Source of the DNA: Yuukianura sp. NJ FZ-2021 | Lineage: Eukaryota | Reading direction: 5' to 3' | Length of the DNA: 64,000 nt | Assembly: GCA_046563655.1 (NCBI GenBank) | Contig: CM102287.1 | Span: 2,046,001 to 2,110,000 of the forward strand | Shown here: positions 10,433 through 30,845 of the stretch, one piece after another | How the letters are laid out: each line of letters opens with the position of its first letter | How positions within the stretch are numbered: position 1 is the first letter of the stretch | Notes under the pieces: model-generated | What the model was told of the DNA's origin: nothing | Seen by the model: the letters and a program-made list of their open reading frames with translations, nothing else | Database searches by the model: none | Program-made: the position numbers and the translations under genes

Positions 10433-11169
10433 TCATCGTCCTCGTTGTGGTTCGACTACCTGTTTTCTCATAGTTTTGGAATATTCATACCATGCAGAGA
10501 ATTGAGCAAGATTCAGTGATTCCAATGCAAGTGGTCGTTGAGCATAGTGATCAGTTGGACTAGTAAAGAAGATGTTCTGGTCATCGGGGTCCAACTGGGA
10601 TAGATCCGCCTGAGACTTCAACATTCTGGTACGATGGCTGGCAGGAGCAGTCTGAACAAAGACACACTTCTCCGAAGAGTAGCTCATTGGCATTTGTAGA
10701 ACATTGGAAGCGGCTTCTTGTGCGGATAATTCACTATTGAGGTTATGAGCTGCCCCAATCGCTTGCAGGCTGTCTTTCAGCGGTGTGTTTCCTTTCCGCA
10801 CTTCGTCCACAACATTCCTCAAGAGTTCCGAGAGACCTCGATTGCTTTTGTTTATGTAGTCAACAATATAGCTACAACAGGCGTATGGATCAAGGATGAA
10901 TTGAATATCCATGTTGGACTTTTGCAGACGCAAAATCTTCTCGTTGTAGGGGTTGATATAAACTTCGTTCGGTTTACGTCTCAAAAACACATGTGGCTTC
11001 TTCAATTTCGTCTGAATCACGTTTAAATACAATTGAAGATCGCAACCTATTGCTTCCAGAAATGCTTCGAATGACATTCCGGTGTCTAGAACTTGATTTT
11101 CCAAAAAATCTCGAATAGTTTTGTGTAATAACTTGAGATACTTGAGTTGTGCTGTGTCTTCCAGGGGTA
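10433..11169 (-). pseudogene. Helentron Rep C-terminal part
   Basis: INPYN...NMDIQFILDPYACCSYIVDYINK (YxxxY catalytic tyrosines) and ELSAQEAA. Joins in frame to the segment right of 26186 once the insertion is removed (KTRILV-PLEDTAQL). Confidence 0.9.
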
Positions 11170-11835
11170 CTGTTCAGATCAAAAAAGAAACCGCAAAAAC
11201 ACCTGCAATCTGTCATGTGCTTTTTTCCCATAAGAAAAAAGAAGCTCCTCACTTCTCCATTCCTCTCCTGCAAAAGGAGGGAAGTTCTTTTTTGACAGAT
11301 GTCTTTTCAAAAAAGAGATAGAGATTAGAGATTGCGCCGCAAGTCAATGCTCCGCCAAAAATAATTACAAAAATTATAAATACAATAAAAAATTATAAAT
11401 AAAATAAGATTAAGAATATCCTTACATTATTCAATTCGTCCACTAGGCATAACATTTTGAAACACTTCATAATATTATTTCCATAATTTTCACCATTTCC
11501 GTCTAAGCTTAGTTGCTGTAATCATAAGTCTTATATTATCACTTCCCTTTTCTTTGCAAAAAGAACATGTTTTCAAGTTTTTATCGTATTTTTTGTGCTA
11601 CGGTTAGGTTCAAAGTACATAATGTTGTTAATGACAGCATCTCTTCAACGCATGCAAAATTCCCTTCCTTTCAAATTCAAATTCTGAGAATTGATACTAA
11701 ACGAAAGACATGAACCCATATAACTCTCCACGGGGTCAGGTCAAAAGGTTAGCCTGCCTGTTTCTGGCAGGCTTTTCAGAATAAGTATTAATGATAGTTT
11801 TATAGCTTGTAATTAATATTAGCCAATATGTTTAG

Positions 11836-12457
11836 TGTTACACTGGAATTAGTGTAGTGCCGCTTCGGAAGGGCCCTCGGGGTCAGTCGATGTTCTCCCA
11901 AGGGGTCAAGGGTCTTAAGGACCTCTTCCCGGCGATGAGTTCTGTCCTTGTGTGAAATAAATATTTGAATTTGTGTGTAAGCATACCTTATTTGTGCTGA
12001 TTGCTGATTTATTTACGCTTAAGTGCTGGGGGTACTTATTCCTTAGTGACTTCTCCGACTCTTCTCTCTGACTTTCCTTTCTTACTTCTAAACCGTGACT
12101 GAATGTTATTTATACAAAGGTGCTTAATTGCTTAATTAAGGTTGCTAGGTGGTCGTTAATTGGAAATTTGAACAACAACTTTTGCTTCCCTAACCGCATT
12201 AGCGGCGCTGGCTGTGGTAGTACTAATTGGATAAATTTACAATCTTCTTCCACTTGGCCTTGTGGTCACTTGGCCTTGTGGTTTCCGCTCAGAAGGAATT
12301 AGCCTGGTGCTTGGTGTGCTTAGTGACTAAGTCTACTTGGCAACTAGATGTGCTTAGCAACTAGGTAGTGCACGTGCGACCTTGGTCCAGTGTTTTGTGG
12401 AAGTGAAAGTACAAGTGCGGGCACTGAAAGTATTGTTGTGCAAGTGCAGGTGCAACA
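11836..12457 (-). repeat. 3' LTR, family 1 (622 bp)
   Basis: Direct repeat of 25234-25857, with about 10 substitutions and one 2-nt indel counted by eye (~98% identity). Confidence 0.97.
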
Positions 12458-12515: not shown

Positions 12516-13766
12516 TCATTCTTGGGGTGGTTGTCGTCGTTCGAGTTCCAGAAGCCTATCCTGCATATCCCGAACCTGGCGTACTAAGTCGGGGATAAGG
12601 ACATCGGGCGGTGGTAAGTCGCCAAGGGTGAGTTGTCGTTGAAGTGCAGTGGGGTATGGCGTCATTCGTCGGCTGGATGTGGGAGTGGTGGATTCTGCGG
12701 CTCGTCGGCTCGGTGAGCGTATCTCTTCCATGAATTCGGGGCCAAACCAGACAAGTAACTGTGGGATGAGTTGGGACGCTCTGGCTTCGTCCATTCCGGG
12801 TGGTTTGGGTAACGTGGTAATCCGTCGGGACAGTCCTCTGATGAACTCAAGATTGGTACCGGTCTTCCATCGCATGTAGTCGGCAACGAAAAGTTGAGTG
12901 GGAACGTCCAAGACTCGAGCGACATAAATGATGCTGGCGCGAATGCGTGTATCACGATGGTCGGTTGGTAGGGTATTTGAAAAGAAGTGAGTTAGACGAA
13001 ACGGCTCTGCGGTTTGTTCATGGGTGGTCTCGAGCATGCTTTGTAAAAGCGCTGGGATGTCAATTGATCCGATTGCGTAACCGTCCTGTAGGTACACGGT
13101 AATATCTTTCCACAGTTGAGCGATTGTCTCTGTGTGATCAACCATGCGAGGGTCGTCTTGTTGCATGCGGTGTTGGGGGAAACCTGCCGGTATGGTGACC
13201 GTAGACTGGAAGTAGCTTCTCACGGTTCGTGGCGCCGCATGGTCTGGCAAACCGTGTATGTGGCAGCGGATAGTCTCTACGTCCAAGACACTGCGCGGAA
13301 TGACTCCGAAATCTCGCTCAATCCACTGTTGTTGCTCCTTTCCGTTGTAGCAAATCTTCATTATCCGCGGTGATGCAAACAGAGTTTTTAACGGGCCGTG
13401 CGTGTCTTCATCTCTGGGGTCCATGATGAAGGTTTTGTTCTTGGACACAATGACTAGACGGCAGATCGCTCCGATGTATGAATGTGGCCATTCGAAACAG
13501 GCAAAGACAACTGGAGAGAGTTCGATTGCTTGTGAGACATGTGCCGTAACTTCTTCTTTCGTCTTCAAGACCGTGTAGTTAGATGGAGGTAGGAGCCATC
13601 CTGGCGTCCAAAGTGAATCGTGCATACGAGTTTCGTCAATGTCTAGCACTTCCATCCGGTCTGGGCGTATCATTCGTGCTCCGTCCGTGAGGTTGCGCAC
13701 TTGTGTTTGTGCGTACTTGAGTTGTGGGAGGTTCCGTGAGACTGAAGGTGCGATGTCGAATTCCAT
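12516..13766 (-). CDS. Rrp6/RNase D-like DEDDy exonuclease-fold protein, probably catalytically inactive, 416 aa
   Basis: Intact ORF between env and the 3' LTR. FACFEW..SYIGAICRLVIVSKNKTFIMDP...LKTLFASPRIMKICYN...WIERDFGV....VLDVE follows the Rrp6 pattern VDLE...CLMQIST...FIID...L...F.DP.I.KVFHG..D..WLQ.DFG....FDT, but the ExoI and ExoII Asp are replaced. HRDC-like VARVLDVP segment. Confidence 0.72.
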   Translation of the reverse strand: MEFDIAPSVSRNLPQLKYAQTQVRNLTDGARMIRPDRMEVLDIDETRMHDSLWTPGWLLPPSNYTVLKTKEEVTAHVSQAIELSPVVFACFEWPHSYIGAICRLVIVSKNKTFIMDPRDEDTHGPLKTLFASPRIMKICYNGKEQQQWIERDFGVIPRSVLDVETIRCHIHGLPDHAAPRTVRSYFQSTVTIPAGFPQHRMQQDDPRMVDHTETIAQLWKDITVYLQDGYAIGSIDIPALLQSMLETTHEQTAEPFRLTHFFSNTLPTDHRDTRIRASIIYVARVLDVPTQLFVADYMRWKTGTNLEFIRGLSRRITTLPKPPGMDEARASQLIPQLLVWFGPEFMEEIRSPSRRAAESTTPTSSRRMTPYPTALQRQLTLGDLPPPDVLIPDLVRQVRDMQDRLLELERRQPPQE

Positions 13767-13880
13767 GGCTAAGGAGTACCTGAGAAGGTGAAAATTAGAT
13801 TAGACGTACAGTGTGCATGATTTGGTGTGCATCGTCAGGATCGTCATGAGTCAATTTCTGGGTGTGGGTAGCGTTTGCGC

Positions 13881-16154
13881 TCAATAGTTATAGCCCGGTT
13901 CAGGGTTTGTGCCGTTTCCCACATTTGTTTCGGCAAATGAGACTCGTCTGGCCTCAGAAAGAGGATAGTCGTAGTAAACTTTCGGTGGAGTCTCTGGTTG
14001 TTGAGTGGCTTTATGGAGTTCGTTGATCGTCTCGTACTCCGTCTCAATCCGTTCAGCAAGGTTGGCTAGTGCACTGGTCCTAGGGAACTTCAAGTTCGTC
14101 AGTGGGTTGCGTTTCACGACAGGGCTGCTTCGCGTCAATTTGGCAGTTTGGGTTGCTGCAGCATAAGTCACCACCGGTTGTCCTTGGGTCTCAGTTTGGT
14201 TTCGTCGTCGCAGGATGCAGTACCAGTACAGGGTGAATATTATGATGATGGTCATCAGAACCAGAGCTAAGGCAAAGTTGCTGGCATGGTGGTAGTCGAC
14301 GTGGTCCGATTGTGCTGCTACTCCTCGTAGTCTGTCCAGGAACGGCAAGGCAAAGGTCAAGCCCGGGGAGGCTTGCAGTTGCTTGTAGAGTAGGAACCCT
14401 AGTCCCAAAGTGAGGCAGACATTCCAAATGATCAATGCCGTGTTAGTTGATGGCGGAATGATGTGCATCAACTTAGGCACCATCATGGTCTTGAGTTGAC
14501 TGATTTCGGTCAAATTCAGTCGGGGTGCGTCGAGGTCCCAGGATTCGTTGAAGACAGATTTCAAGTTAGGGAAGACAGTTTGGCTTCCGTAGTTCCGGTC
14601 GTGGGCTGGTTTGAGCATGATGTCGATCTTCGACATCATTGCTGGTATGACGATTGTGACTCGTGGTGCGTCCGCCATGCCCGTGGGGCATGGATACGGT
14701 GGTCGAATTGTCCGTCGTCCTGGAACTTGTAGTTCGCAGTCGCAAGAGAGTCTGACTTCAAGGCTTCCAATCTGGTCAGATGGTGGCTGCACGGGGTGAG
14801 TCCTGTTGTCCGAGATCCCGCGTTCTCCGCACTGGATCTGCATTCCTTCTGGGGCTCCGGTCAGAATGAAAGTGTGGTAGTCCAATTGAGTTACGCTGAA
14901 GTCTCCCGGTGTGTTGAGACATTCAAAGAGGCAGACTTCGTTGAGTTCTCGAACGCTGGCTCCGCGTAAGAGCCGTTGGGCGCATAAGTATCCGGTCATC
15001 GGGTCGGAGCTGAACTGTGGTACGTGGCAGAGTCCGGTTTCGGGGTGGCATTGTTGGAGTTGTGTGCCTTGGATCGTCACGAGTTCTTCTTCGTTAACGG
15101 CTAGGTATGCTGGAGCGTGTTGAACAATGCAGGTGCTGCCCTTATAACTGAACGGCACGTTTATCATTTCGTAGAGCTTCCAATTGTCTACGAGCTTCTT
15201 GATGGGTACCCGAATGCGGTACATAATCCGTCCTCCGTCGCTGAAAGCGCAGTCAGTGAGCTTCAGTTTGTAATACCGTGTGACTTCCTCGATGGGTATT
15301 ACAAGTCCGTAGCCGTCGGCTAGTAGCTTCCGGCTGGCTTTGCGGAGATCTGCTGCTAACTGGGTCGGTGGGACTGCCAAAATGGAGATGGTTTGAGCTC
15401 GGCAGTGGTCCTGGAGATCCTTGAAGCGCATCAGCTCTCCGATTTGGTTGAGGTAGTCGAACACTTGGAGAAAGGTTCGTCTAGTGGAATCTCCTTCGGC
15501 GGTAAGCAAGGTCATTGTCCTTTGCACACTTGCGTTGCTGTCCTGCATGGCGGCCTGTTGTTGGTAGAGTCGGTTGACGTGCTCGTGCGCGGTTTGGAAG
15601 AGTCGGGTGACGTTCTTCCCAAAAAGTTCCATTGAGGTTTTCAGGTTCATCACGTTCTGGTTGTTTATGACAACTGAGCCCTTAATGGCTTCCATGAACT
15701 TCTCGATGCTCTCACCGTTGACCTGGAGGTCCTGCATGTCTCTTTTGGAGACGAATCCGCAACAAAAGCTGAACATGTCGCTGACTAGGGTGAGAGGGTT
15801 GAACGATTGCCATGTGAGGTCCCGTTTCGTGCGTCTTGGGCTGGTTCCGGTCATCATCATGTCGTCCTTGATGGATGCAAACATCTTGGTGAGGTAGGTT
15901 GTGTAGGGTCGAATGTTCATTGGGAAGGTGCAGCCTTCAGTTTGAGCGTCACGGCATGTTCCTTCCATGACATTTCCAATCGGGTTGGTAAAGTTGACTT
16001 GAATGTCATAGACCAGGGGAATTGTAGCGGTGTACAATTCCGTTCCTTTGACCTCCCGAACGAGAGATCCTGTAGTGACTCTGACTTCGGTGGGCTGAAT
16101 TGAGAACGCATTGGTTCCTCCCATGATGGTTGTCAGTATAACCAGCCACTCCAT
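13881..16154 (-). CDS. env: Envelope glycoprotein, class I fusion (baculovirus F/errantivirus-like), ~757 aa from ATG 16154
   Basis: Signal peptide MEWLVILTTIMGGTNA, furin site RRTKR (~15822-15836) followed by a hydrophobic fusion-peptide-like stretch, heptad region, Cys-rich ectodomain with N-glycosylation sequons, and C-terminal TM helices. Lies directly after pol. Confidence 0.88.
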   Translation of the reverse strand: MEWLVILTTIMGGTNAFSIQPTEVRVTTGSLVREVKGTELYTATIPLVYDIQVNFTNPIGNVMEGTCRDAQTEGCTFPMNIRPYTTYLTKMFASIKDDMMMTGTSPRRTKRDLTWQSFNPLTLVSDMFSFCCGFVSKRDMQDLQVNGESIEKFMEAIKGSVVINNQNVMNLKTSMELFGKNVTRLFQTAHEHVNRLYQQQAAMQDSNASVQRTMTLLTAEGDSTRRTFLQVFDYLNQIGELMRFKDLQDHCRAQTISILAVPPTQLAADLRKASRKLLADGYGLVIPIEEVTRYYKLKLTDCAFSDGGRIMYRIRVPIKKLVDNWKLYEMINVPFSYKGSTCIVQHAPAYLAVNEEELVTIQGTQLQQCHPETGLCHVPQFSSDPMTGYLCAQRLLRGASVRELNEVCLFECLNTPGDFSVTQLDYHTFILTGAPEGMQIQCGERGISDNRTHPVQPPSDQIGSLEVRLSCDCELQVPGRRTIRPPYPCPTGMADAPRVTIVIPAMMSKIDIMLKPAHDRNYGSQTVFPNLKSVFNESWDLDAPRLNLTEISQLKTMMVPKLMHIIPPSTNTALIIWNVCLTLGLGFLLYKQLQASPGLTFALPFLDRLRGVAAQSDHVDYHHASNFALALVLMTIIIIFTLYWYCILRRRNQTETQGQPVVTYAAATQTAKLTRSSPVVKRNPLTNLKFPRTSALANLAERIETEYETINELHKATQQPETPPKVYYDYPLSEARRVSFAETNVGNGTNPEPGYNY

Positions 16155-16188
16155 TCTGAATATAGAAGATTTAGGGTTAGAACTTACG

Positions 16189-19100
16189 CTAGGTAAACCG
16201 TGCAGGTTTACGGATCTGTCGCCCTGCGCGTGTGACATAGGGCGTTTGTGACCTTTTGGTTTCATCTATGTCGGCCTTGTCGACCTTTGTGTCGACCTTC
16301 TCCTCTTCCGAGGACTCACTACTACTCTCGCAACTGTCCTCGCTAGTCGAGGTTGCAGTAGAGCTACTGTCATTCTTTTCGTCGTCAGAAGTCAGAGGCG
16401 ACGATGACGTAGGTATTGTAAAGTTTTGAAGCACTGGAGGCGGAGCATTGCCTTCCCCAACTTGATTTGCTGCTACTCCCGGAGCAGCTTCAGTGGTCGC
16501 AAATTCGAGTAGTGACTCGGAGTACGGTTTAAGATGATCGATGTGGGCCCGAACATGAGGCGCGTCGGGATCGGCGCGTGGCACGCACCAGTACGAGAGT
16601 GGGGAGTGTTTCTTGGTGATGACGTAAGGTCCACGGTATCGCATCGCAAGTTTGCGAGAAGTACCGGGTGCTGGTTTGTGAACCTTGATGAGGACAAGGT
16701 CCCCTTCATTGTATTCGAAATCCAGTCGGCCGACGTTAAAGAGTTTGCATTGGCGTTGTTGGCTCTGTTGGAGACCTTTGCGTGCCGCGTCTCGTGCTTC
16801 CTGCATTCGCCGAATGCGCGTCGGAATGTCGGTGGATAGTCGGACCGTCGTACACGATGTCAAGAGGGTGATAGGGATGACGACCGTAAAGGATATAATA
16901 GCTGCTATATCCAGTAGAGTCCTTGTGCACTGCAGTGTTGAGTGCAAAAACGGCGGATCCAAGATATTTGTCCCAGTTGCGCTGGTTCGACGAAACGTAG
17001 TTGGTGAGGATTTCTTCAATGCTACGGTTGTTCCGTTCCACCAGCCCATTAGTCCTGCTGTGGTATGGCGATGAATAGACGTTGGTCGCCCCGATCAGGG
17101 AGTTGAATTGCTTGAAGAACGAAGCGGTGAAGGTAGAGGCGTTATCCGTAAGGATCGTTTTGAAGACGCCGTGAATTTTGGATGATTTCCATAAGGAAAT
17201 CTAGCATCGCTTTCGTAGTATTGTGGCGTATGGCCTTCGCGTAGACGTATCGTGAGAGGAACTCGACTAGGACGACAATGTACTTATTTCTCGACTTTGT
17301 AGAGGGCAGGGGCCCGATGACATCTACGCTGACTCGGTCGAAGAGGTCACCTACTGGGATGGGTGACAACAGTCCGGCGGGGTGTGTGTTCCGGACTCGG
17401 CGCTTCTGACAGCTGGCACAGTTCCGTACGTACTCGGTTATAAGCGCGTCGAGCCTGAACGCGAATATGCTGTTCCGAGCCCTGGCAAGGGTTCGGGCGA
17501 CGCCTAGATGACCCATGAGTACGTCGTCGTGAAAACGAGGTAGAATGGAGTGCACCATGTGCGTCGGGATTACTGGAAGGTTAGCCTTCGTTTGTTTGCA
17601 CTTGTATTGTAGGAGACCGTCGTCTACAGTGAAGCGTTTGTGGAGCTTGCTCCTAGCGTTTGTAGTGAGAGTAGCTAAAATTTTCTGAAGCTTCTCATCG
17701 TCTTGTTGTTGGCGTAAGAGCTCGGTACGCGACTCCATCGGGGTAACAAATTGCATTGCGTACCAGTGTACTGGGAACTCATCAGTAAATGTCGCAGCGT
17801 GATCCTCCACAGGGAAACGTGAGAGGCAGTCTGCTTGAACGTGGCTTTTCCCATTGACGTGCTTTATGGTGTAGTCCACGTCCTGGAGTCGTAATGCCCA
17901 ACGTGCCAGGCGCGAGTTGCGCAAATTCCTGCACGTTTTGAGGTAGCAGAGGGCGTGATGATCGACCACAATCGTAAAGGCTTTGAAGCCAATATACTCT
18001 CGAAATTTTTCAATTCCCCACAGGACTGCTAGGCATTCTTGTTCACTGGTGTTGTAGCGCTCCTCAGCGCCACGGTAGGTGCGGCTGGCGTAAGCCACCA
18101 CGCGTAAAGTGTCTCCCTCTCGTTGTTGGAGTATGGCGGCAATGCCCTTGTTTGACGCGTCTGTGTGTAACTCGAGTTCTGCATTCTCATTAAAGAATGC
18201 GAGGATGGGTGCGGAAACCAAACATTGGCGAAGAGAATCGAAGGCTCCCTGTTCTTGGTCGCCCCACTGAAAAGCTACGGTACTTTTCGTGAGCTCAGTC
18301 AGTGGTTTCGCAATTTGGCTGTAGTTCTTGATGAAGCGACGGTAATATCCAGTACAGCCAAGGAACGTCCGTACTTCGTGAACGTTGGTGGGAGGTCGCA
18401 TCTCCGTGATGGCCTTAACTTTGTCAGGGTTGACGGCAACTCCATCCCCTGTGATGATGTGACCAAGGAGTGCTAATTTCGTTTGTCCGAAGTAACATTT
18501 CGGTGGTTGAAGGGTAAGATTGTAAGCACGAAACTGTCGGAAGACATTTTCCAAGTTGGCCAAATGTGACTGAAAATCTTTGGCGAAGACGCATACGTCG
18601 TCAAGGTATGCGGTGCAAATGGAGTGGATCCTCGTCCCAAGAACTGTCTTCATGAATGCACTAAAGGCGGCTGGTGCGCAGGTTAGGCCAAACCCCATGT
18701 AGAGGTGTTCGTAGGCGCCGGCATGAGTTACGAAGCTTGTCTTCTCGACGTCGTCCGGATGAATCGGGATTTGGAAGTAGCCGGACATCAGATCCAGGCA
18801 AGAGAAGTACTTGGCGCCATTCAAAGAAGCCAATAGTTCAGAAATTACTGGCATAGGCCAGTTGATGGTTTTGGTGACGAAGTTGAGTTTCCTCCAGTCG
18901 ATGACCATCCGGTATTTGTCACTGTTCGGTTTCTTAACTAAAGAAACTCCAGCGGCCCAAGGGGAGCGGCTTTCTCGAATAATTCCTGCTTGTAGAAGTT
19001 TGTCGACTTCTTCTTCAATGATTTTCTTCTCCGCCGGGCTCTTCTTGTAAGGTGGGCAGCTTACTGGTAGTGCGTCGCCAGTGTCGATACGGAAAGTTAC

Positions 19101-20153
19101 ATCCTTTGCTTTGCCCAACTGATCCAAATTCCAAGCGAAGATGTCGCCATATTCTAAAATGAGAGCGCGGAGTTGCGCTTGTTCGTCGGGGCTTAAGTCT
19201 GGATTTATTTGAAGTTGGTCAATATTTTCCCGGGTGGATTCCTGCCGTTGCCGGCGGATTTCCTCTTCTGGTTCCGTTTCTCGAACCAAAACACGGTAGA
19301 TATTCCCGACGTTGACTCCGCGGTACAACTTGACAGCGACTGGACGCGGGTTATCAATGGGGATCTCGAAGTCTCCTTCTGCGACATGAGCGAGTCCTGG
19401 GGCACATAGGCCTAACTTGTCGAGGGCTTGGCTATTCGGTTCGAAAGCAAGGATTCCTCGGAGCTGGTCAACTGGAAAGACCTTGATGAGCGTGGTTGAG
19501 AATGGTGGCAACATTGTTTCCTCAACTGTAAGAACTTTTGGCATCGAGGGACCATGAACCTGGGTAGCGTGAACTTGTTCGCGTTGCATGGTGTTTAGAC
19601 TCAGTCCAAGGGCGGCTGGGGTACGTAGGTTGAATCCTCGCGGTACCTTCATACCTAGGAACTGGAAAGTTCCATGTTCCAGCGACTTCGAATACTTCAA
19701 TTGCAGTTCATGTTCCAATGTAAAGTCATTCCCGAGGATTACATCGTAGGATATGTCCGCCAGGACATAAAACTTATGCGTTAGCAGAGTGGTTGACTTG
19801 CGGGAAAATGTGACTTGCCGATAGACGTAACCGAGTACCGTGACCTTCGACCCGTTTGGAAGGTCGAGAGCTGATGAAGAGTCTATGGGCCTGATTTCGT
19901 CCGAAGTGACATTGTTGAGCCGAATTATGCTGACTGGGCATCCCGTGTCAAGGAGACACGAGCATCGCTTGAGTTTTGAGTTTTGTGACAAAAATATGCT
20001 AATTATGAGGTTGCCGACTGGATCCGTACTACTAGGGTCTCCTGGAAAAGCTGTGTTGCGGGTCATCATAGCTAGAATTGGTCGTGTTGGATTAGAGGGT
20101 TTAGCGTTTGAGTGGGCTTCAGACCTCTCTACTGTCGCCGCGCTGCGTTTCCC
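16189..20153 (-). pseudogene. pol: Gypsy pol (PR-RT-RNase H-IN), integrase frameshifted
   Basis: LLDTGC protease, YLDD RT, LHTDAS RNase H, HxxxxxGH...CASC and VSVDVIGP integrase, and a GPY motif. The integrase is spread over several frames, with shifts at ~17160, ~17045 and ~16830. Confidence 0.95.
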
Positions 20154-21598
20154 TGAGCCGATACAGTTCGTCCTGCCGTCGGAGCTGAAGCTACAGCTTC
20201 GGAAGAGTTGCCTCTGTGTTCCGGTTGTCGCCGGGGGCAATCGAACGTAAGGTGTTCTCCGTCACACTGAGCGCAGCGGGGGTCCCGAATAGTGTTCCGC
20301 AAATATGATTGGTAGCGAGAGCACTCCGCTCGACGGTGTTGCGGTGATCCGCACTCGAAGCATCCACGGAACGTAGGTCGGTCTTGCCATGGTCGCCATG
20401 GGCGACCGTTGCTGCGCTGTCCAGAGCTGTATGGATTGGTTCCCGGAGATTGACGTGGTTGATCGCGATTGTACCCGTGGCCTGCTTTGCCCCATGCTGG
20501 GCGTCGTTTCACCGTGCGTCGCTCCACAGCTTGTGGTTCCGCTGGTGCTTCCAAGTTCATGTTGTTGAAGCGTGCAGTCAATCGGGGTAGATCGGTGCCT
20601 GCCCGTTTCCGCTTCATCATGAAGTCGTAGTTCTCCTTTTCTATAAGAAACTGCGTCACATCTTGCGGCGTCTTCGGTTGACGTAGGAATATCTCGTGAC
20701 TGACATCTGCTGGCAACCCCTTGAGCAGGAAGTTGACCCGCTTTTCGTCCTTCATGGTGGTCCCTTGGCTTTTGTCCAACTGGTCACATAGTCGCAGCAC
20801 CTTGCCGCAGTAGTCTTCCACGCTCTCTTTTGGATTTCTCTTCCGTTGAGCCAAGCGGTATTCCAATTCTTCTTCAGTCAGCCGTGACTTGAAGCTAGTG
20901 TGGAATCCCTCCTTTAGGGTCTTCCATGGAAGAGCGACAACGTCGCCGTTGGCGTCTCGATTGGCTGGGTCACGCTCCCAGTCGGTGCGAAAGTTCAAGA
21001 ACCAGGTTTTCGCATAGCCCTTGAGGTAAAGCGGCAGATGGCGCACTTTCGCAGCCTCGTCCCAACGTTGATTAACAGCTATTGCCTTGAATGTCTCCTA
21101 GAAATTCCTGGCTGGGTAACCTCGCTTCCCCTCGAATGTTGAATCGCCCGGTGGTGTCCAAACGGATACCACAACACTCGGTGCGGGAGTCGTCAGCACA
21201 ACAGGTTGCTGAGGTCCCGGAGTAGGTGGCGTGCCTGTGCCTCCTGGCATTCCAGATGCTGGTGGCTGTCCGCCACCGGTTAGGTTCACAACTGGGACTG
21301 TTGAGCTTGGCCCACCAGCTCCTGCTGGCGGCGTCGGTGGGGTAGTCGTTGCGGGCACCGGAAGAGTGAACGCGCTCCCGGTCCCTCCGGCGGGTCCGAA
21401 TGTCCCGCCCGTTTGGCCCGTTGTTGGGCTTACAACAAGGTCGCTAGTTCTTGTCGTCGCACCGGCTCATGCCGTGGGCGTCTTCGGCCGTTGCCGATCC
21501 CGTTCCTTTGCCTCCTTCAGTACTGCGGAGAGGTCCGCAAGTCCGTACGTTGGTGGAGTCCCGTCCTGTCGGGTGTGTCGATGAGCTGGATCCGACAT
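20129..21598 (-). pseudogene. gag: gag with two in-frame stops
   Basis: ATG 21598, ORF 21098-21358 and ORF 20129-21046 share one frame, broken by TGA 21467-21469 and TAG 21098-21100. Capsid-like LYLKGYAKTWF and ESVEDY; knuckles CFECGSPQHRRAEC and CAQCDGEHLTFDC. A -1 slippery heptamer GGGAAAC at 20153-20147 leads into the pol frame. Confidence 0.9.
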
Positions 21599-22669
21599 GA
21601 CTTACTTCGTCTTCTTCTTCTTCTGAAAGGATCAGATGATTAGTTGTATTTGGTCCCCTAGGGCGTGGGATGATGTAGGGTCGAGGGTTGGATAACTTCC
21701 TCCCTCGGCATTTGCAGAAAAATGAAATAGCTATTGCCCCCATGCCGGCTAGTAACCCTACTATGAAACCGCGCATGAAGGTGTCGGGGTTGAATATATC
21801 GGACATAAGGTGGGCAGTTTGACAGTCTACCCCCAGTTGAAGATATGCGTATAGGGACTTGTCCATGAGTAGCTTGTTTTCCCGGGTTATCAGCTGGACC
21901 CGGCCTTTCTCGTAAGTGTAAACGCCTCGTTCCGTGTCCCGAATACCGACAAGGCGTAGATCTCGTAGGTGAGGGTAGGGCATGTAGATGTCGGGCTCGT
22001 CCCATAAGGTTTGAATCATGCCCTTCTCTAGGTATAGCGGCCTCCATCCAGTAGCCAGCATGATCCAAAGGGTGTGTTCTGATGGGAAGTACCCCAAAAC
22101 TGGGTATGTAATGCCAAAGAAACTTCGGTGCTTGAGTCCTGGTGTAATTAGGTGGCCGTCTGATAAATATACTCCGATTTGGTCGTCAACCATAACATAG
22201 AGGTAACTCGCGACGCCGACTGTGAAGTTGATTCGGCCGTCCGGCGGGAAGTCCTCGAAGAAATCGGCATTCTGCACTGGAGTAGGAAGTAGTGTCCCAG
22301 CTCCTGTAACTCTAACGTGACTTTTCCCGTGGAACAAGAGGTGGTCCCCATTGAGGTATCCAACATGATCGTACCACAGGGTACTCAGGCCTCGGATGTT
22401 TTCTCCATCCGGCCCTTCGTCGAAGAATCCTGGTGGGTACAGGACTTTCAGTGCTTCTTCGTCGGGAACTCCTATTTCCGTAACGTGCGGCCAGAACTGG
22501 TACCATGCTGTCATCACAGATCCTATGGCACGAGTGTGTGGCAAGGCCAAGGCGTGGCCTATTTCGTGTAGGAGTACCGAAAATAGATTGACGTGTTCGT
22601 CGTCTTCTCCGAGAGACCAAGTCTCGTTTGCGTCTAGGTGGATTTGTCCGCCCATAACTGATCCTGGAT

Positions 22670-24181
22670 CAGAGGTGGTAGCCTGCAACTATTTTCCCCA
22701 ACCTGCCCCGCCTGCACTGCAGGAATTTTTAGCCTGCACGCCTGCAGCCTGCAAAATTGTCGAAAATCGGCAGCCTGCACGCCTGCACCCGCAAGGCTCT
22801 TTGGCAGGCCAGCCTGCAGCCTGCGCAGGCTGCCTGCAGTTAGCCTGCAATTTTTTTATACGAACTGTAATCTGAAAAAATTTTAATATACACTTACAAC
22901 TACTGCGTAGATTCGTTTGCGTATAATGGCAATTACTCAATCACCCTCGATTATCTGTCGGTTGTCCTTTCCAAACACGTAGCGAGAAAAATTCCTTGTA
23001 ATAAATTGTTCTACGACACTTCTACCTTACTTTTGGTTAGACTTTCACGGCTCCGGCTCTTTGGCAAAGAGTCGAGTCGGAGTCGGAGCCGGAACCGACT
23101 CTCGACTCCCATATTTTCAAGGAGTCGGAGTCGGAGTCGAATAGCCGACTCGGCTCTTTACTCAAGAGCCGAGTCGGAGCCGGAGTCGAGCCGGGAGCCG
23201 TGGCGCCCGGAGCCGGGTATTTTTATCATGAAAAAATCAGAAAAATTTGCTACGCTGTACATTTCCAAGCCATTCGTACACAGACTTGTGGCGATTAACT
23301 AACGGATTAATGCAGTCATCAATGACGTTCAAAAAAGGTTACTGCTACTGTGCCTTAAATCAACAAAAATACATTTTATCTACTGTGAGAGAAATTAGGG
23401 AGACAAGAAACGACTCTTGCATAGTAGCGAGCAACGATTTTGAGCAAGAAACAACAATTATTTTCGTAAAATTCGCTGAAAAGTCACGTTTTCGACTCCC
23501 GGCTCTTGGCCTAACAAGGAGCCGGAGTTGGAGTCGGAGTCGGTACCGACTCCCGACTCCCATATTTTTCAAGAGTCGGAGCCGGAGCCGAAGGTCCGAC
23601 TCGGCTCTTTAAGGAAGAGTCGAGTCGGAGCCGAGCCGGGAGCCGCGGCTCCGGAGCCGTTGGAGAGCCGAGAGCCGTGAAAGTCTACTTTTGGTTTGTT
23701 TAACTTTTAAAAATTCTTGATCCTTGCACATAAAAAAATCCGCAAAAGTTATACTGTCAAATCTTGCGTTGTCTACACGTGCAAGTGTAACGCCAACTTT
23801 ACTTTTTAACCATATTTCTTCTTTCTCCGGATTCATTATTTATTGTTTAAAAGCCCTATAGTGCAACTAATGTGCAGCAAAAAGTTTGCATAGTTCCATT
23901 GACTTTAATTCTTCAACATTCCAAAGTAATTTTTCTATTCGTTTCTATCTTTTCTTGAAGTTTCTGAGAATAAAACGCTCAAAAAATCACAACCCGCAGC
24001 CTGCAGGCCAAATGCAGGCGCCTGCAGAGCATTGAAGACTGAACCCGCCCGCCTGCAACATTTCCAAATAAAAACCTGCACGCCTGCAGCCTGCAAAAAT
24101 CCACCGCAGGTTGAGCCCGCCTGCACGGGCTGCAGGTTGGCCTGCAACCTGCGCAGGTTTACCTGCAGGCTACCACCTCTG
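22670..24181. mobile_element. hAT-type MITE inserted in the MMP gene
   Basis: 18-bp TIR CAGAGGTGGTAGCCTGCA, 8-bp TSD TCCTGGAT (22662-22669 and 24182-24189), GCCTGCA subterminal repeats. Confidence 0.95.
23038..23687. mobile_element. Second hAT-type MITE nested in the first
   Basis: TIR TAGACTTTCACGGCTC, 8-bp TSD CTTTTGGT (23030-23037 and 23688-23695), GAGCCG/GAGTCG subterminal repeats. Confidence 0.95.
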
Positions 24182-25215
24182 TCCTGGATAGTGGGCGTGG
24201 GCTAGTGTGCCTCCACGTCCGTCACTGGCGTCATCATGAATTTCGTGTTCGAAAGTGATGGGGATGTCAGCACTCCCTTCTACGTAAGTAAAGGTGAAGT
24301 TGGAATAGCGTTGCCACTTCACAAACGCCAGACTGGCGTCAGCCAGTGCTTCTTCTCGGTCCATATCATATGGAGTAGGTCCAAGGGTCCAGGTAAGGTC
24401 CCTCTTGGTCCACCGGTGAGGGTTCACCGGACTTCGTCGAGTTCGTGTCGCCGGTGCCCACGGGCACATCATCGTTCCGGCGACCTCTGCAACGAGCGTC
24501 GTCCCGACGCAAAGTACAAGGAGCATCCGTAGAGTCATACCGTCCAGGTATCCTGTAACAGGGTTGAACCGCCAAGGTTCGGTAATTTGTTTCATTGCTT
24601 CGTTTGTAGCCTCGTTGTGTTTCGCTCCTCGGGGTATGCGACAGGTGTCGAAGAAAAACCTCTGTCCTACGTCATCGCCTCTCTCGAGTGGTCGCGACTC
24701 CACCCTCAAAGCGACTTCGATTACTTGCGCTAAATGGGCAGCTGTAGGGTCTGGGACCTCAATGTTCTACAGCCCGGTCAAGATTTACACCGTTGCCGAG
24801 GTGACGGCCCACCGTCCCTCAACCCGTTCCTTCACGGAATATTTCTAGACGTTCGGTTTCATCTACGCCAAGCGCGGAGAGCAGTGAATCTTCTATACAA
24901 GTCGTTAATACGCCAGCCAGCTACCCAACTGGCTGGGGAAGAAAGTAGCGTCGAAAAAGAAATGACAGTAGGAGTTTCCTCCCCCTCTCTCAATTGTGAG
25001 AACAATAAGTTAGTAAGTTACGTTATTGTCTTACGTTACTGACTACGTTATAGTTTCGCGCACACATTCATTCAATACGTTAAGTTACGTTAACAGCTGC
25101 ATTAAAGACTGCGGTATTGTAGTAACAATAGTCTCATTTGAATAAACAGCGCAAGAAAGAAAAGCAAACAGCCGCAGAGGCGGGAACCTCTTATTGTTTT
25201 AAAATAAATTGCCAT

Positions 25216-25231
25216 CTCGGCAAATGCACCA
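25216..25231 (-). promoter_or_regulatory. Primer-binding site, family 1 (tRNA-Gly-like)
   Basis: TGGTGCATTTGCCGAG lies 2 nt inside the 5' LTR and resembles the complement of the tRNA-Gly(GCC) 3' end, TGGTGCATTGGCCGGG (recalled, not searched). Confidence 0.7.
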
Positions 25232-25233
25232 TT

Positions 25234-25857
25234 TGTTACACTGGAATTAGTGTAGTGCCGCTTCGGAAGGGCCCTCGGGGTCAGTCGATATTCTCCCAAG
25301 GGGTCAAGGGTCTTAAGGACCTCTTCCCGGCGATGAGTTCTGTCCTTGTGTGAAATAAATATTTGAATTTGTGTGTAAGCATACCTTATTTGTGCTGATT
25401 GCTGATTTATTTACGCTTAAGTGCTGGGGGTACTTATTCCTTGGTGACTTCTCCGACTCTTCTCTCTGACTTTCCTTTCTTACTTCTAAACCGTGACTGA
25501 ATGTTATTTATACAAAGGTGCTTAATTGCTTAATTAAGGTTGCTAGGTGGTCGTTAATTGGAAATTTGAACAACAACTTTTGCTTCCCTAACCGCATTAG
25601 CGGCGCTGGCTGTAGTTGTTCTAATTGGATAAATTTACAATTTTCTTCCACTTGGCCTTGTGGTCACTTGGCCTTGTGGTTTTTCCGCTCAGAAGGAATT
25701 AGCCTGGTGCTTGGTGTGCTTAGTGACTAAGTCTACTTGGCAACTAGATGTGCTTAGCAACTAGGTAGTGCACGTGCGACCTTGGTCCAGTGTTTTGTGG
25801 AAGTGAAAGTACAAGTGCAGGTAGTGAAAGTATTGTTGTGCAAGTGCAGGTGCAACA
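25234..25857 (-). repeat. 5' LTR, family 1 (624 bp)
   Basis: Direct repeat of 11836-12457 and adjacent to the PBS. Minus-strand TATAAATA at ~25505-25512 and AATAAA at ~25406-25411. Confidence 0.97.
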
Positions 25858-26186
25858 TTAGCGTAAATGTATCAGTTGTATTTTAAGGAAAGGTGCGTAT
25901 ATTAATAGTTTACTAGGATTATTGTTTTTCAACTTTTAAATTATATAGTCTTACTCTTATTTTATTTATAATTTTTGTAATTATTTTTGGGCGGAGCATT
26001 GACTTGCGGCGCAATCTCTAATCTTCGTCTCTTTTTGGAAAAAACACCTGTCACAAAAGAACTTCCCTCCTTTAGCAGGAAAGGAATGGAGAAATGAGTA
26101 GCTTTTTTTGTCTCTTTGTTCCTTATGGGAAAAAAGCACATGACAGATTGCAGGTGTTTTTGCGGTTTCTTTTTTGATCTGAACAG

Positions 26187-28247
26187 TACAAGGATCCGAG
26201 TTTTATCCATTGGAAAGAAAGGAATTCCAAAACGACATTTCACTCCTTTGTGCGTTCTTTTGTAGCAAGTATGAGTATGGCGATGCGTTTGGAGCGACAG
26301 TAGACCATTAATGGGATCCTCAGGAGTGTAGTTTGTACTGCATGTAATCATGCTGTCAATAAAATTCGTCACGTCATCGTGATAAGCCTTCTCCGAGTTG
26401 AAGGTTGGTGCGTCGGAGAGCCAGAACATGGCATGGACATGAGGACTTCCCCGGTGCTGGAACTCTACTCTCTCATAAAAGTGGCGAATTTCGTGACAAC
26501 CAAAAGGACCATTTCGGGAGCGGTAAGTTGCCTTCCGCGCGGAGTAACGGTTGTCAAAATAACGTGCACAAGTGATCGGGTCGCGTTGAATGAGAAGCGC
26601 CTTTTCAGAATGCGGTAACTGCTCGGCTTCCTCTTCAGAGGTTTCAACGCCATCCAGAATTTTCTTCAGTAAAACAAGTAACTCGTTCCACTTCATCTCT
26701 GCCGCGCTGATTGTTACAAACAAAGTAGCGATCCCAAAGGTACGAATCATTGCCCGAACTTTGTTACCCTCGTTCTTCCAGTGTATTCCTGCGTTTCTAA
26801 TTCCCGCTAGAACTCTATAAGCGTTATCGTCCCGGATGAGGCCATCGACGTAAGTCTGGTGCAAGACTTGGCCTGCTGTGGGAACAATGAGCTCTCCGTT
26901 AAGTCTTCGCTTCCTAAGGTGTATGTTTCTGTTGCTTGCTATTCGCGAGATTTCCAGGGTCTTCGCCATGAACAAAAGAAAATCCACGGATTCAGCCACA
27001 CGCCGGTCCTTATTCCTAGCAAATGACTTGAACATATCGGCTCTTGAGATTTTCTTCCCAGCAAAAATGGGGTTCATCTTGTGTCCGGCGAACAACTGAG
27101 GAAAAGCGAGAAATACAGAGTCTTCGTCCAGAAGAACAGAAACAGGGCGATTTCCCTCCGCGAGGGGCATCCGAAGCCCGGCGCTATCGGTCAGCAGGGT
27201 TTCATTTGCGGTGGATTCTTCAAATTCTCCACCCGACTGTACTTCGCTCGAGATACTCAGAGGGTTTTCGAGCAAATTCTCCAGGCTAGAGTCCATTGAA
27301 GTCAATTCTCGATGAGAATCCACCAGCCAAGAATGGGAGACATTCACACCATGTTGAGAGTACAATGGAGATTTGCACAGAACTTCAGCAGCTAGAAAAA
27401 CTTTTTCTGGACGGATGTTTCCAGAAGTATAATTCTTCTCAACATGCATCTGACGGGCTAGCCGAAGATGCAGCACCGAATCGTCTGAAGGAAGACGTGG
27501 CAGGGATTGGACGATGTTGGTAACAGATACAGGCACGTTGATAATACGACCTTTGGTCTTGAGCTGACCTAAAGTTAAGAAATATTTGAATTACCTTTCT
27601 TGAAACTGATTCAATTAAAAACTAAATCCTTGAGGTCCTTGGACTGCCCATATCGCTTGAAAAACATGGTAAGGCGACACTAATCTGGCCTCCAACCGTG
27701 TCAAAGACGCGACTTCAGATGGTACGGCCGGAAACTGGAGTCCATTGGTTAAGCACAGTCGAGAGCTACGACCAGATTTCACAGCAGCGTGGCAAGTAAT
27801 GCAAAATTGTCCTACAAGTTGATTTGACGTGAAAATTGTGTTGAGAAAGTTGTCGTCAGATTTAGTACAGTCGGATCGCCGCAGCTGCTTGATAGATTTT
27901 TTAAACCAAAGTCCACCACAGGAGATGCATTCGTGTGATGGACCTTCTCTGCATTTTTCTTCGAAGACCTCGACGACACAATCCCAGGACTCATCATGAA
28001 TTTGACGCAGTTGACGATGAGCTGCAGTATCTCGTTCTCGTTCCAGTTGTCTGTAGTCGTCATTTTCACGTAGTTGACGATGAGCTGCAGAATCCCGTAC
28101 TTGCTCTCCACGGCGGATCCCTTCATCTAGCCGGGCAACTCCGTGAGAAATGATGTTTCTGCTTTGTTCTTCTTGTCTGCTAGATTCGACTGCCCTTACG
28201 AACTGCATTCGTCGTCTCGCTCTGGCTCGTCGGTGCGGATTTGACAT
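26187..28247 (-). pseudogene. Helentron Rep N-terminal part (zinc finger plus HUH Rep), two exons
   Basis: RDxAAHRQLR repeats, CISC...CITC zinc finger, intron at ~27570-27625, LFVTISAAE motif I and VEFQHRGSPHVHAMFW HUH motif. Confidence 0.93.
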
Positions 28248-29069
28248 AATTCTATCTGAAATAAAGAAATATCACGTAATTGGGTATTCCTTGATAGTGA
28301 CAAATAAAATTAGAAACCACATTCTTACCCGACGGAAATGTATAAATTTGAATCTAAGATTGAGGTTACGTACTACTTAAATTATAACTGAGAATTGTGA
28401 ATTAAACTGTAAACTAGACACTTGAATGATACAGGCAAAGAACTAATGTCAGTTGATCTTAATTGTGTAAAGTTTATAAGTTTAAGATGAGACCGTATTG
28501 GAACAAAATTCAAAAAAACTCGTTTTGCCAATTACACTTTGTAGCCAAAAATGTTTCAATACAATCCACAACTATTAAACAACCCCCACATAATGTATTG
28601 TCAAAGTTGCCATGGCAATATACTATTATCACTTCTGCACTAAATTGATGTTGTTAATTTGTTGTGCACCAAATGCACAAAATTGAACGCTGAGGCAGCC
28701 GCATATTTTGACGTTGTTAATGTAAGACTTTGAGTGCAATGTAGACCTACTAAAAACACTTGAGCCAAACATAACCCCCAGACTGCGATGGGGCTTATGT
28801 TTCAGTGGAAAGGGTCCTAAAAAAGGTGACAGACAGACGGACGGACGGACAAAGTCGTATCAATAGTCTTCTTCAGCATGTCGTAGACATGCGTCTCCAG
28901 AAGACTAAAATTGAATTCATGCAAGATTAAATGCACAAAATTGAACCCTGAGGAGAATGGGTGGAATACTCCTTCTTTCAAATCCAAATCGGTTCATGAA
29001 AATGCACAGTGTTTTACATTTAGTGCATAACTTATTGAGTCGAAAATCGCTTGTTTACAATCAAATATA

Positions 29070-30513: not shown

Positions 30514-30845
30514 TATAACAATTTCTTGCAAAGGCAAATTTTAACCCTGCCAAGCACTGTTTCCATATTATGAGTTTAAGCCAGATTTTCTACCCTCTAG
30601 TTAAGTCTTAATTTAACAACGTAATTAAACATACTGCCAGAAAATGACCGGATCAAAACTTCGTTGTTTAAATATATTTTGAGTGTAATCGAAACCAAAA
30701 TGTTTCCGGGAAACGACTGCACTTAGGGTGCATAAAGTGGCCGCCCATTTCCACGTTGTTAATATAACACTTTGAGTGCAATGTAGACTTAATGAGGCAT
30801 ACATAACCCCCCGGACAAAATGGAGCTTATGTTTTAGCGCAAAGG

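Follow-up and report, generated by a model that had tools for sequence, protein, structure and literature searches.

A matrix metalloproteinase gene ahead of gag in a dead copy of an env-carrying Ty3/gypsy-type endogenous retrovirus

The window analysed (64,000 nt of contig CM102287.1 from Yuukianura sp. NJ FZ-2021) carried a full LTR retroelement on its minus strand. This retrovirus-like element spanned ~14 kb, or ~12.5 kb once a hAT-like insertion was subtracted, and its genes were ordered matrixin, gag, pol, env-like ORF and 3' ORF (Table 1). The structural hallmarks of a Ty3/gypsy LTR element were present (paired TG..CA LTRs, a target site duplication [TSD], a primer-binding site [PBS] and a purine-rich tract), as were the coding ones (gag, and a pol ordered RT, RNase H, integrase). 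The 5' and 3' LTRs differed by 9 mismatches and a 2-nt gap, and the TSD CTAA lay immediately outside each of them. The PBS presumably resembles the 3' end of tRNA-Gly; no tRNA genes were found in the 64-kb window by ARAGORN. The surrounding region was crowded with transposons (hAT-like, Helitron-like, Pao and further gypsy copies).

Table 1. Features of the element, in its 5' to 3' direction (window coordinates)
Feature	Position	Strand	Remarks
5' LTR	25234..25857	-	624 nt, TG...CA ends
Primer-binding site	25214..25231	-	TGG start, 2-nt spacer after the 5' LTR, read directly
Matrixin, N-terminal part	24182..24538	-	119 codons from ATG 24538; signal-like stretch, Cys-bearing spacer, RTRR, first catalytic half
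Non-autonomous hAT-like insertion	22670..24181		1,512 bp, splits matrixin
Matrixin, C-terminal part	21444..22661	-	405 codons + stop; second catalytic half, divergent hemopexin-like region, TM stretch, ~85-residue tail
gag	20129..21598	-	ATG 21598; Retrotrans_gag E 3.9e-9, also Ty3_capsid
pol	16189..20261	-	protease region, RT, RNase H, integrase
env-like ORF	13881..16265	-	794 residues; RRTKR site, C-terminal hydrophobic stretches
3' ORF	12516..13799	-	427 residues; weakly resembles 3'-5' exonuclease folds
3' LTR	11836..12457	-	622 nt; purine-rich tract just ahead

The gag gene contained two in-frame stops (21467-21469 and 21098-21100). It was 47% identical over 298 residues to the gag of a divergent relative on a metagenome contig (L002), and the segment enclosed by the stops was alignable too. 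The gag start at ATG 21598 is supported by its homology to the L002 gag start (MSD...). The pol ORF matched the Pfam profiles RVT_1 (442-603), RT_RNaseH (693-794) and Integrase_H2C2 (898-956), plus SH3_Tf2-1. The integrase frame was broken twice, near 17142-17200 and near 16736-17094, and contigs from other copies differed in length at both sites. The env-like ORF had three relatives, 37-47% identical, and a Baculo_F match (E 2e-4, 20.5 bits) under the cut-off of 24.1; one of four aligned members matched Baculo_F. A search of its profile against the PDB gave no meaningful match. For the 3' ORF, DNA_pol_A_exo1 reached 22.5 bits, under the cut-off of 23.6, and RRP6 was matched with E 5e-5. We identify the window element as an endogenous retrovirus of the env-carrying Ty3/gypsy (errantivirus-like) kind. 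This copy is dead, with the hAT-like insertion, the two gag stops and the two integrase frameshifts.

The matrixin gene lay between the PBS and gag, and the gag ATG overlapped its tail by 154 nt. It was present as two fragments, both of which exceeded the cut-off of 24 bits for Pfam Peptidase_M10 (PF00413). The ORF at 24170-24766 matched profile positions 1-82 of 159 (E 8.9e-14, 52.1 bits) and the ORF at 21444-22688 matched positions 75-158 (E 4.3e-17, 62.9 bits), so that the fragments are abutting halves of one domain. The two parts were in register across the insertion and gave 119 + 405 = 524 stop-free codons from ATG 24538. Read directly, the joined protein opens with a hydrophobic N-terminus and carries RTRR just ahead of its catalytic domain. 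HEIGHALALPH and a Met-turn come next, and a further hydrophobic stretch is C-terminal. The three zinc-binding His, the catalytic Glu and the Met-turn were all intact, and H130, E131, H134, H140 and M148 (L002 numbering) were invariant in 30 aligned rows, including the window C-fragment. The columns of the structural Zn/Ca ligands (H, D, H, H; DGxGG; E of DxxExW) were near-invariant in a 30-row alignment, and the ligands aligned with those of stromelysin-3, MMP-1 and MMP-16. In the zinc motif of the window copy, Ala replaced the near-invariant Gly of HExxHxxGxxH; L002 reads HEIGHALGLHH. Two traits of membrane-type MMPs (MT-MMPs) were present, namely a furin-type site (RTRR in the window, RKRR in L002) and a C-terminal anchor, read directly as a hydrophobic stretch in both proteins.

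The first-pass annotation had described two minus-strand matrixin fragments here, which on removal of the insertion would fuse into a stop-free protein of 524 residues with a membrane-type layout (signal peptide, furin site, catalytic domain, TM anchor) and structural-zinc motifs, encoded by the first gene of an LTR retroelement and overlapping gag by ~155 nt. This description held, and both fragments passed the M10 profile check that it had proposed.

The insertion that splits the gene ended in 18-nt terminal inverted repeats (TIRs) that matched perfectly, and it was flanked by an 8-bp TSD, ATCCAGGA, at 22662-22669 and 24182-24189. We take perfect TIRs together with an 8-bp duplication to be the hAT pattern. 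The earlier boundaries (22670-24181) and TSD were correct; the label 'MITE' was not retained, as 1.5 kb is long for one. The window copy cannot make the matrixin protein because this insertion interrupts the gene. The empty site was also found: three contigs of one sequencing run (X1) joined 22661 to 24182, skipping 1,520 letters with 8 letters shared. Internally deleted variants of the insertion were also present in the sequencing runs.

Contigs from organism A, whose runs represent one sample and possibly the window's own source, covered the element's internal region in full (30 of 30 bins). A 1,941-nt contig of this organism spanned the gag start and matrixin with 82 differences. From organism B, a contig of 1,703 nt spanned the N-terminal part of matrixin and the leader, and a second one covered 22113-22663 with 27 differences in 551. 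The gene is therefore not confined to this copy, as contigs bridge the empty site, link matrixin to gag and, in organism B, link it to the leader. Neutral evolution among copies was not indicated: six of the seven listed matrixin differences were synonymous versus 24% expected (P about 0.001), a count drawn from a small, tool-chosen set of 40 of the 1,861 copy differences. Among the listed differences, 11 of 17 in env and 5 of 9 in pol were synonymous.

The relative L002 carried an uninterrupted matrixin followed by gag and then pol, which is the order of the window. Its matrixin matched M10 with E 2.9e-47 (160.9 bits, PF00413 positions 2-158) and it had a TM helix, with RKRR preceding the catalytic domain. 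Between the window and L002, identity was 53% for pol, 47% for gag and 32-40% for matrixin (43% in the catalytic domain); the C-terminal part of the window matrixin aligned with 32% identity over 225 residues (E 2e-24). The predicted fold of the L002 protein (pLDDT 84.6) comprised a beta-rich domain (204-378) and a helix (389-424). Its best PDB matches were full-length MMP-13, MMP-1 and MMP-12 (E 1e-26 to 1e-22 over ~390 columns) and its catalytic domain reached a TM-score of 0.94, but the model favours the MMP fold because it was built with an MMP alignment. L002 was the sole divergent relative found; two collection scans with the matrixin itself as query returned none. Taken across the window, the other copies and L002, the matrix metalloproteinase is a conserved 5'-most gene, ahead of gag, of this element family.

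Cellular MMPs have a pro-domain of ~80 residues. In the window matrixin, roughly twelve residues, one of them a Cys, are all that separates the signal-like stretch from RTRR. Neither a Pfam match to the pro-domain profile PG_binding_1 nor a PRCGxPD cysteine switch was found in it; the pro-domain status rests on the window copy, as the N-terminus of the L002 matrixin is lost at the contig end. DUF3377 (the TM/cytoplasmic tail of MT-MMPs) had no Pfam match in either protein.

The claim of a probable hemopexin-like region stood in part. In the window copy, Pfam Hemopexin gave no match even at E up to 10, and the likeness was to blade I only. The hhalign probability was 19% (P 0.0012 over 45 columns, with none of 20 shuffles equalling the score), phmmer alignments extended into MMP blades I and II, and ESM gave a lead of 0.80 for a hemopexin domain. 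In L002, Hemopexin (PF00045) was above threshold (25.1 bits versus a cut-off of 21.3), and the window matrixin aligned to the L002 matrixin through this region.

In a tree of 123 catalytic domains, in which the adintovirus protein P0097 was the only viral MMP, the window and L002 were sisters (support 100/87). Both fell inside a five-row clade (97/87) with the invertebrate MMPs P0004, P0105 and P0012. P0004 and P0105 have canonical pro-domains (PRCG switch), and P0004 also has a Pfam PG_binding_1 match. No close cellular or viral MMP was found among 1.84 billion representative proteins; the best of these had E 2e-20 and 30-52% identity over the catalytic half only, which rules out the near-identity to a host MMP raised in the first-pass annotation. 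The matrixin derives from an invertebrate cellular MMP subfamily and later diverged along with gag and pol. Orthology to the vertebrate MT-MMPs (MMP14-17/24/25) was considered and rejected: the DUF3377 tail and a canonical pro-domain are missing, and the tree groups the protein with invertebrate MMPs.

Our preferred reading, to which we assign a probability of roughly 60%, is that of an env-carrying endogenous retrovirus family with a conserved 5' MMP gene, the product of which is a surface protease that cleaves matrix and aids spread. The protein would enter the secretory pathway and be cut by furin. The active zinc endopeptidase would then be displayed by the cells that express it, at their surface, and perhaps on the particle envelope too, where it would cleave extracellular matrix or basal lamina. 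This would let enveloped particles or infected cells cross between tissues. A similar use has been suggested for the MMPs of large insect DNA viruses. Translation of gag-pol is awkward because a 1.5-kb first ORF precedes gag, which might be expressed by splicing, from an internal entry site or through a second promoter. A wider version of this reading is tentative, and we would not bet on it: a 'complex' lineage of invertebrate env-carrying retroviruses may have long kept, over pol divergence down to 53% identity, a remodelled, pro-domain-less membrane MMP as its first gene. Infected cells or the particle envelope would display this protease, and it would open basal laminae for spread between tissues (soma to germline, or across the gut), an independently arisen counterpart to the MMPs that granuloviruses, ascoviruses, nudiviruses and adintoviruses carry. 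In this version the 3' exonuclease-like (Exd1/RRP6-like) accessory gene may counter host RNA-based defence.

The conserved enzyme might instead act on something other than matrix, either as a sheddase of cell-surface proteins or as a processor of the element's own envelope protein. Membrane-type MMPs are known sheddases; the furin-type site is shared with them, and the anchor (direct reading; TM helix in the L002 model) would place the enzyme beside other surface proteins. As a sheddase it could serve receptor removal, the blocking of re-infection or the blunting of host defence. We consider this unlikely, though worth keeping in view. A hemopexin-type domain is retained, most clearly in L002, and in cellular MMPs this domain serves matrix-substrate binding. 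The RRTKR site of the env-like ORF, which fits a processed envelope protein, points to furin and needs no MMP.

A use of any kind would be absent if the matrixin were a passenger, i.e. a cellular MMP cDNA captured once and carried in one sub-lineage. Retroelements do acquire host sequences, the window copy is broken and a single divergent relative was found. Against this, the gene has kept its position in two lineages with pol only 53% identical, its catalytic residues are intact, six of the seven listed copy differences are synonymous, the 1.84 billion representatives held no close cellular source, and the layout has been remodelled with loss of the pro-domain. A mere passenger is therefore improbable. 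Least credible of all, and close to negligible, is an artefact, through misassembly or through an unrelated insertion nested in the element and mimicking one of its genes. The region is indeed a transposon pile-up, but contigs of separate runs and of a second organism join matrixin to gag and to the leader, L002 has the identical gene order, and the gag start overlaps the matrixin tail.

For env-carrying retrotransposons, the route out of the expressing cell and into the germline, or into a new host, is unclear. A matrix protease encoded by the element and displayed on the particle or cell surface would, if true, be a concrete and testable invasion factor. Retroelements would then have recruited a host MMP as several large insect DNA virus families did, a convergent acquisition of one tool. 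Conserved accessory enzymes encoded upstream of gag are rare, and this would be one more; with it comes the question of how gag-pol is translated. Genome annotators should note that an intronless 'MMP-like' gene in an invertebrate assembly may belong to a retroelement.

Compared with cellular MT-MMPs, the element matrixin shares the furin-type site, the catalytic domain, the C-terminal anchor and, most clearly in L002, a hemopexin-type domain. With P0004, P0105 and P0012 it shares HLD..E.WSL in place of the usual HFD.DE.W. It differs from cellular MMPs in having no PG_binding pro-domain or PRCGxPD switch and no DUF3377, and in being intronless and within LTRs. Several MMPs of large insect DNA viruses are likewise said to lack the cysteine-switch pro-domain. 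These viruses also carry a matrixin, but the carrier here is a retroelement and not a DNA virus. BFVD lists MMPs in granulo-, nudi-, asco-, irido-, entomopox- and hytrosaviruses, in agreement with the earlier statement on granuloviruses and entomopoxviruses; their predicted folds match with E 2e-24 to 1e-6. Identity to the MMP-named BFVD matches (ranks 1-17) was 15-32%, below the 34-39% seen with human catalytic domains. A dragonfly adintovirus protein named 'collagenase' (P0097) was among the sequence matches and was not the sister of the window matrixin in the tree.

With env-carrying Ty3/gypsy elements (errantiviruses, Metaviridae), the window element has in common the TG..CA LTRs, the 4-bp TSD, gag and a pol ordered RT, RNase H, integrase, and its third ORF is errantivirus-like in its envelope-like features and weak Baculo_F match. 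Unlike errantiviruses, it has an extra matrixin ahead of gag and an extra exonuclease-like ORF after env; ~12.5 kb is long for an env-carrying Ty3/gypsy element. Captured or accessory genes are known from retroviruses and LTR elements (dUTPase, oncogenes, extra ORFs of plant Ty3/gypsy elements). No retroelement-borne MMP was found in the literature searched, in which the main text of two recent surveys (PMC13524379 and PMC12992720) does not use the terms metalloproteinase or accessory, and that of PMC13524379 not the term peptidase either. The gene, hitherto described from cells and from large insect DNA viruses, is here part of a retrovirus-like element. As with the other captured genes, a cell-derived gene has been retained, but in this case it encodes a predicted secreted, membrane-bound matrix protease and stands upstream of gag.

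On the minus strand of the window, 14,022 bp are taken up by a complete LTR retroelement (see the table). We read it as a Ty3/gypsy element that carries env and has a matrix metalloproteinase (matrixin, Peptidase_M10) as its first gene, and we regard this reading as real and well supported. Between the two LTRs there are 9 mismatches and a single gap of 2 nt, and the 4-bp duplication CTAA is present on both flanks. The primer-binding site (PBS) begins with TGG, 2 bases past the 5' LTR; ARAGORN found no tRNA gene within the window to compare with it. Stop-to-stop frames and Pfam matches gave the internal order matrixin (in two pieces), gag, pol, env-like ORF and 3' ORF. The Baculo_F match gives no firm type for the env-like ORF. 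The G+C content is 0.49–0.56 inside the element (~12 to 22 kb) compared with 0.36–0.44 in the flanks below 12 kb.

Features of the matrixin-bearing retroelement and of its surroundings in the window
Feature	Position	Strand	Details
5' LTR	25234-25857	minus	624 nt, TG...CA
Matrixin, N-part	24182-24538	minus	119 codons, ATG 24538
Insertion	22670-24181		1,512 bp
Matrixin, C-part	21444-22661	minus	405 codons
gag		minus	Pfam Retrotrans_gag, Ty3_capsid
pol		minus	RVT_1, RT_RNaseH, Integrase_H2C2, then integrase core in shifted frames
env-like ORF		minus	794 residues; Baculo_F match below threshold
3' ORF	12516-13799	minus	427 residues, between env and 3' LTR
3' LTR	11836-12457	minus	622 nt, TG...CA; purine-rich tract just before
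Helitron-like element	25962-27590 and 27615-28271	minus	Helitron_like_N (E 8e-19); DUF6570
Inverted repeats	11167-11361 / 25985-26189		89–97% complementary
Further retroelement	30834-33536	minus	
Further retroelement	40124-42202	plus	
Further retroelements	49054-51017 and 60575-62852	minus	

The Helitron-like element adjoins or encloses the LTR element, and the inverted repeats lie on either side of the LTR-element insertion. The further retroelements of the window comprise one Pao/BEL-type element (Peptidase_A17, E 2e-49) and three gypsy-type pol regions, the latter with 30–34% identity to the pol of the matrixin element. No matrixin was found in any of these four.

The first-pass annotation had joined the two matrixin frames into one gene split by a MITE. 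The pieces indeed form a single Peptidase_M10 domain, as they match abutting halves of the profile (1-82, E 8.9e-14, and 75-158, E 4.3e-17), and both parts are free of stops, with the frames on the two sides of the insertion in register. The proposed overlap with gag was also found: the gag frame has its ATG at 21598 and shares 154 nt with the tail of the matrixin. The insertion stood with its terminal inverted repeats and target duplication, but it is rather long for a MITE. Its 18-nt terminal inverted repeats are free of mismatches and its target duplication measures 8 bp, which we take to be the hAT pattern. In this hAT-like, non-autonomous insertion (1.5 kb), a CCTGCAGG-type motif forms GC-rich sub-terminal repeats, and there are two further repeats of ~109 nt in the interior. 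The insertion is represented by many contigs in the sequencing runs, including several internally deleted forms.

The window copy of the element is dead due to the insertion, stops in gag and breaks in the integrase frame. There are two in-frame gag stops (21467-21469 and 21098-21100), and the stretch between them can still be aligned to the uninterrupted gag of L002, a metagenome contig with a divergent relative of the element. In the integrase frame there are two breaks, and both are private to the window copy, because contigs of other copies differ in length there.

The catalytic set of the matrixin is intact: across a 30-row alignment with the window C-part among its rows, there is no variation in the three zinc histidines, the catalytic glutamate or the Met-turn, and the ligands for structural zinc and calcium line up with those of stromelysin-3, MMP-1 and MMP-16. 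In the zinc motif HEIGHALALPH, the window copy has alanine (codon 22548-22550) at a near-invariant glycine position, which is glycine in L002 (HEIGHALGLHH). A pro-domain is absent, with ~12 residues including one cysteine between the signal-like stretch and RTRR. Downstream of the catalytic domain, some 220 residues lead to a hydrophobic stretch, behind which comes a tail.

The hemopexin-like region that had been proposed for these ~220 residues was not matched by Pfam in the window copy (E up to 10), but it was in L002 (25.1 bits vs. a cut-off of 21.3). Compared with a profile built in-house from 59 C-terminal regions of MMPs, the window residues gave a blade-I-like match (hhalign P 0.0012, probability 19%), and none of 20 shuffled controls reached its score. 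The phmmer alignments of the window C-part to MMP-1 and several database MMPs extend into blades I and II. The language-model atlas gave a weak lead (0.80) to MMP-16-type hemopexin clusters. The single-sequence fold of the C-part had a mean pLDDT of 34.9, and this model was not used.

L002 came from a scan of metagenome contigs with pol, in which 342 pattern matches yielded three loci. The contig (4,435 nt) has an uninterrupted matrixin followed by gag and pol. Its matrixin is open at the 5' contig end and comprises 431 residues, with Peptidase_M10 matched over positions 2-158 (E 2.9e-47), RKRR directly before the catalytic domain and a hydrophobic helix at the C-terminus. The gag of L002 (617 residues) starts 70 nt past the matrixin and opens with the same residues as the window gag, which supports the gag start. 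Identity between L002 and the window is 53% in pol (441 residues), 47% in gag (298), 40% in the matrixin N-part (91) and 32% in the C-part (221), where the alignment reaches well into the post-catalytic domain. No relative was confirmed from C-part peptide patterns among viral contigs (2 stretches matched) or metagenome contigs (19 matched), nor from the pol scan of viral contigs (35 stretches matched).

The L002 protein model (mean pLDDT 84.6, pTM 0.69) was built on a 30-row alignment of MMPs, which favours an MMP-like outcome. In the model, the catalytic domain is accompanied by a beta-rich domain at 204-378, and the chain ends in a long helix. Its best PDB matches in Foldseek were full-length MMP-13, MMP-1 and MMP-12 (~385-393 columns, E 1e-26 to 2e-22), and against catalytic domains alone the TM score was 0.94 at 1.3 A.

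The matrixin belongs to the element family. In organism A (three runs, one sample), contigs spanned 30 of 30 bins of the element's internal region. Three contigs represent the empty hAT site, joining 22661 to 24182 with 1,520 bases skipped and 8 letters shared, and a 1,941-nt contig with 82 differences extends over the matrixin C-part and the start of gag. This sample may be the one from which the window itself was derived. The contigs speak for presence and linkage, not copy number. The run labelled as another organism (B) gave one contig over 22113-22663 (27 differences in 551) and a 1,703-nt contig that runs from the matrixin N-part via the leader to the LTR edge. No RNA run was among the 5 sequencing runs listed. 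An internally deleted derivative was also seen: contigs of both organisms (runs X1, X3 and X4) join 14068 to 24375 with identical 28 filler letters, so that the leader and the matrixin start are retained and run into the env-like ORF at a point 186 nt upstream of its stop codon.

An unrelated nested insertion was rejected on the linkage in the run contigs and in L002, and an artefact is very unlikely. The copy differences bear on a functionless passenger. Within the matrixin, 6 of 7 were synonymous (the other being Phe to Ile) vs. 24% of random changes (P about 0.001), in a small, tool-selected sample of 40 listed differences out of 1,861; the synonymous share was 11/17 in env and 5/9 in pol. 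This points to purifying selection on the matrixin, and a passenger is unlikely.

At the other end of the element, the 3' ORF probably represents a second accessory ORF and possibly a second accessory gene. Three leads, all weak but in agreement, connect it with a 3'-5' exonuclease (DEDD) fold: a Pfam DNA_pol_A_exo1 match (22.5 bits, slightly below the cut-off), RRP6 in the PDB (E 5e-5), and atlas clusters of giant-virus exonucleases and an arthropod 'Exd1 homolog' (0.86). The fold may be inactive, because the first acidic motif does not align cleanly.

The matrixin is distant from known proteins. When 1.84 billion representatives were searched in full with HMMER, there were 560 matches with E up to 0.001, five with E up to 1e-10 and none up to 1e-30. 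They cover mainly the catalytic half (30–52% identity); a few extend into the first hemopexin blades, but no match spans the C-terminal two thirds. We rejected the idea that the gene was captured recently from a host mRNA, as no close MMP was present among these representatives. Of 8,000 candidates scored in the word-based protein search with the C-part, one matched, a collagenase-like protein of a beetle (39% identity, 19% of the query); with L002, the word-based search gave 12 matches, the best 31% identical.

For the tree, 167 proteins matching the L002 catalytic domain were taken and 41 with a match of less than 120 positions were removed, leaving 126 rows. The first tree placed the long, oddly composed P0079 beside the pair of window and L002 matrixins. 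After removal of the long branches P0079, P0099 and P0167, the tree was rebuilt from 123 catalytic domains, with an X at the insertion break of the window sequence. The two matrixins were sisters (support 100/87) within a 5-row clade with the database proteins P0004, P0105 and P0012 (97/87). P0004 and P0105 have canonical PRCG pro-domains. This placement and these pro-domains argue for a single origin: most likely, the matrixin was acquired once from an invertebrate cellular MMP of the P0004/P0105/P0012 subfamily, after which the pro-domain was lost and the gene went on to diverge together with the element. P0012 (Mesorhabditis belari, nematode, partial) resembles the window protein in that a signal-like stretch and basic residues lead directly into the catalytic domain, with no pro-domain in between. 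Around the pair lies an 11-row group with weak support (69/82). It includes P0097, named 'collagenase [Ladona dragonfly adintovirus]' at NCBI, which assigns an MMP to an integrating DNA virus of the Polinton-like kind. A literature search for 'adintovirus' with 'collagenase' returned 0 papers.

In full-text literature searches, neither LTR retroelements nor errantiviruses were reported to carry a matrixin. In the main texts of two recent papers on env-carrying Ty3/gypsy elements (PMC13524379 and PMC12992720), 'metalloprote(i)' and 'accessory' are absent, as is 'peptidase' in the main text of PMC13524379. In passages of a review on insecticidal proteases (PMC3153225), native granulovirus MMPs are not covered.

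For the matrixin, identity and place are established, as are the intact catalytic set and the fact that two lineages have retained the gene. As to its role, the protein would enter the secretory pathway and be cut by furin, and it might be active despite having no latency domain. It would be displayed on the cell surface or the particle envelope, where it could cleave matrix or basal lamina and thereby let particles or cells pass between tissues. The main rival is a role as a sheddase or immune-evasion factor.

No reverse-transcribing virus or element was among the HMMER, word-based or viral-structure matches. The known systems to compare are the MMPs of DNA viruses, whose existence is supported by matches among predicted viral structures: granulo-, nudi-, asco-, irido-, entomopox- and hytrosaviruses were matched, at 15–32% identity for the MMP-named proteins. 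The function attributed to these DNA-virus MMPs runs parallel to the passage between tissues proposed for the matrixin.
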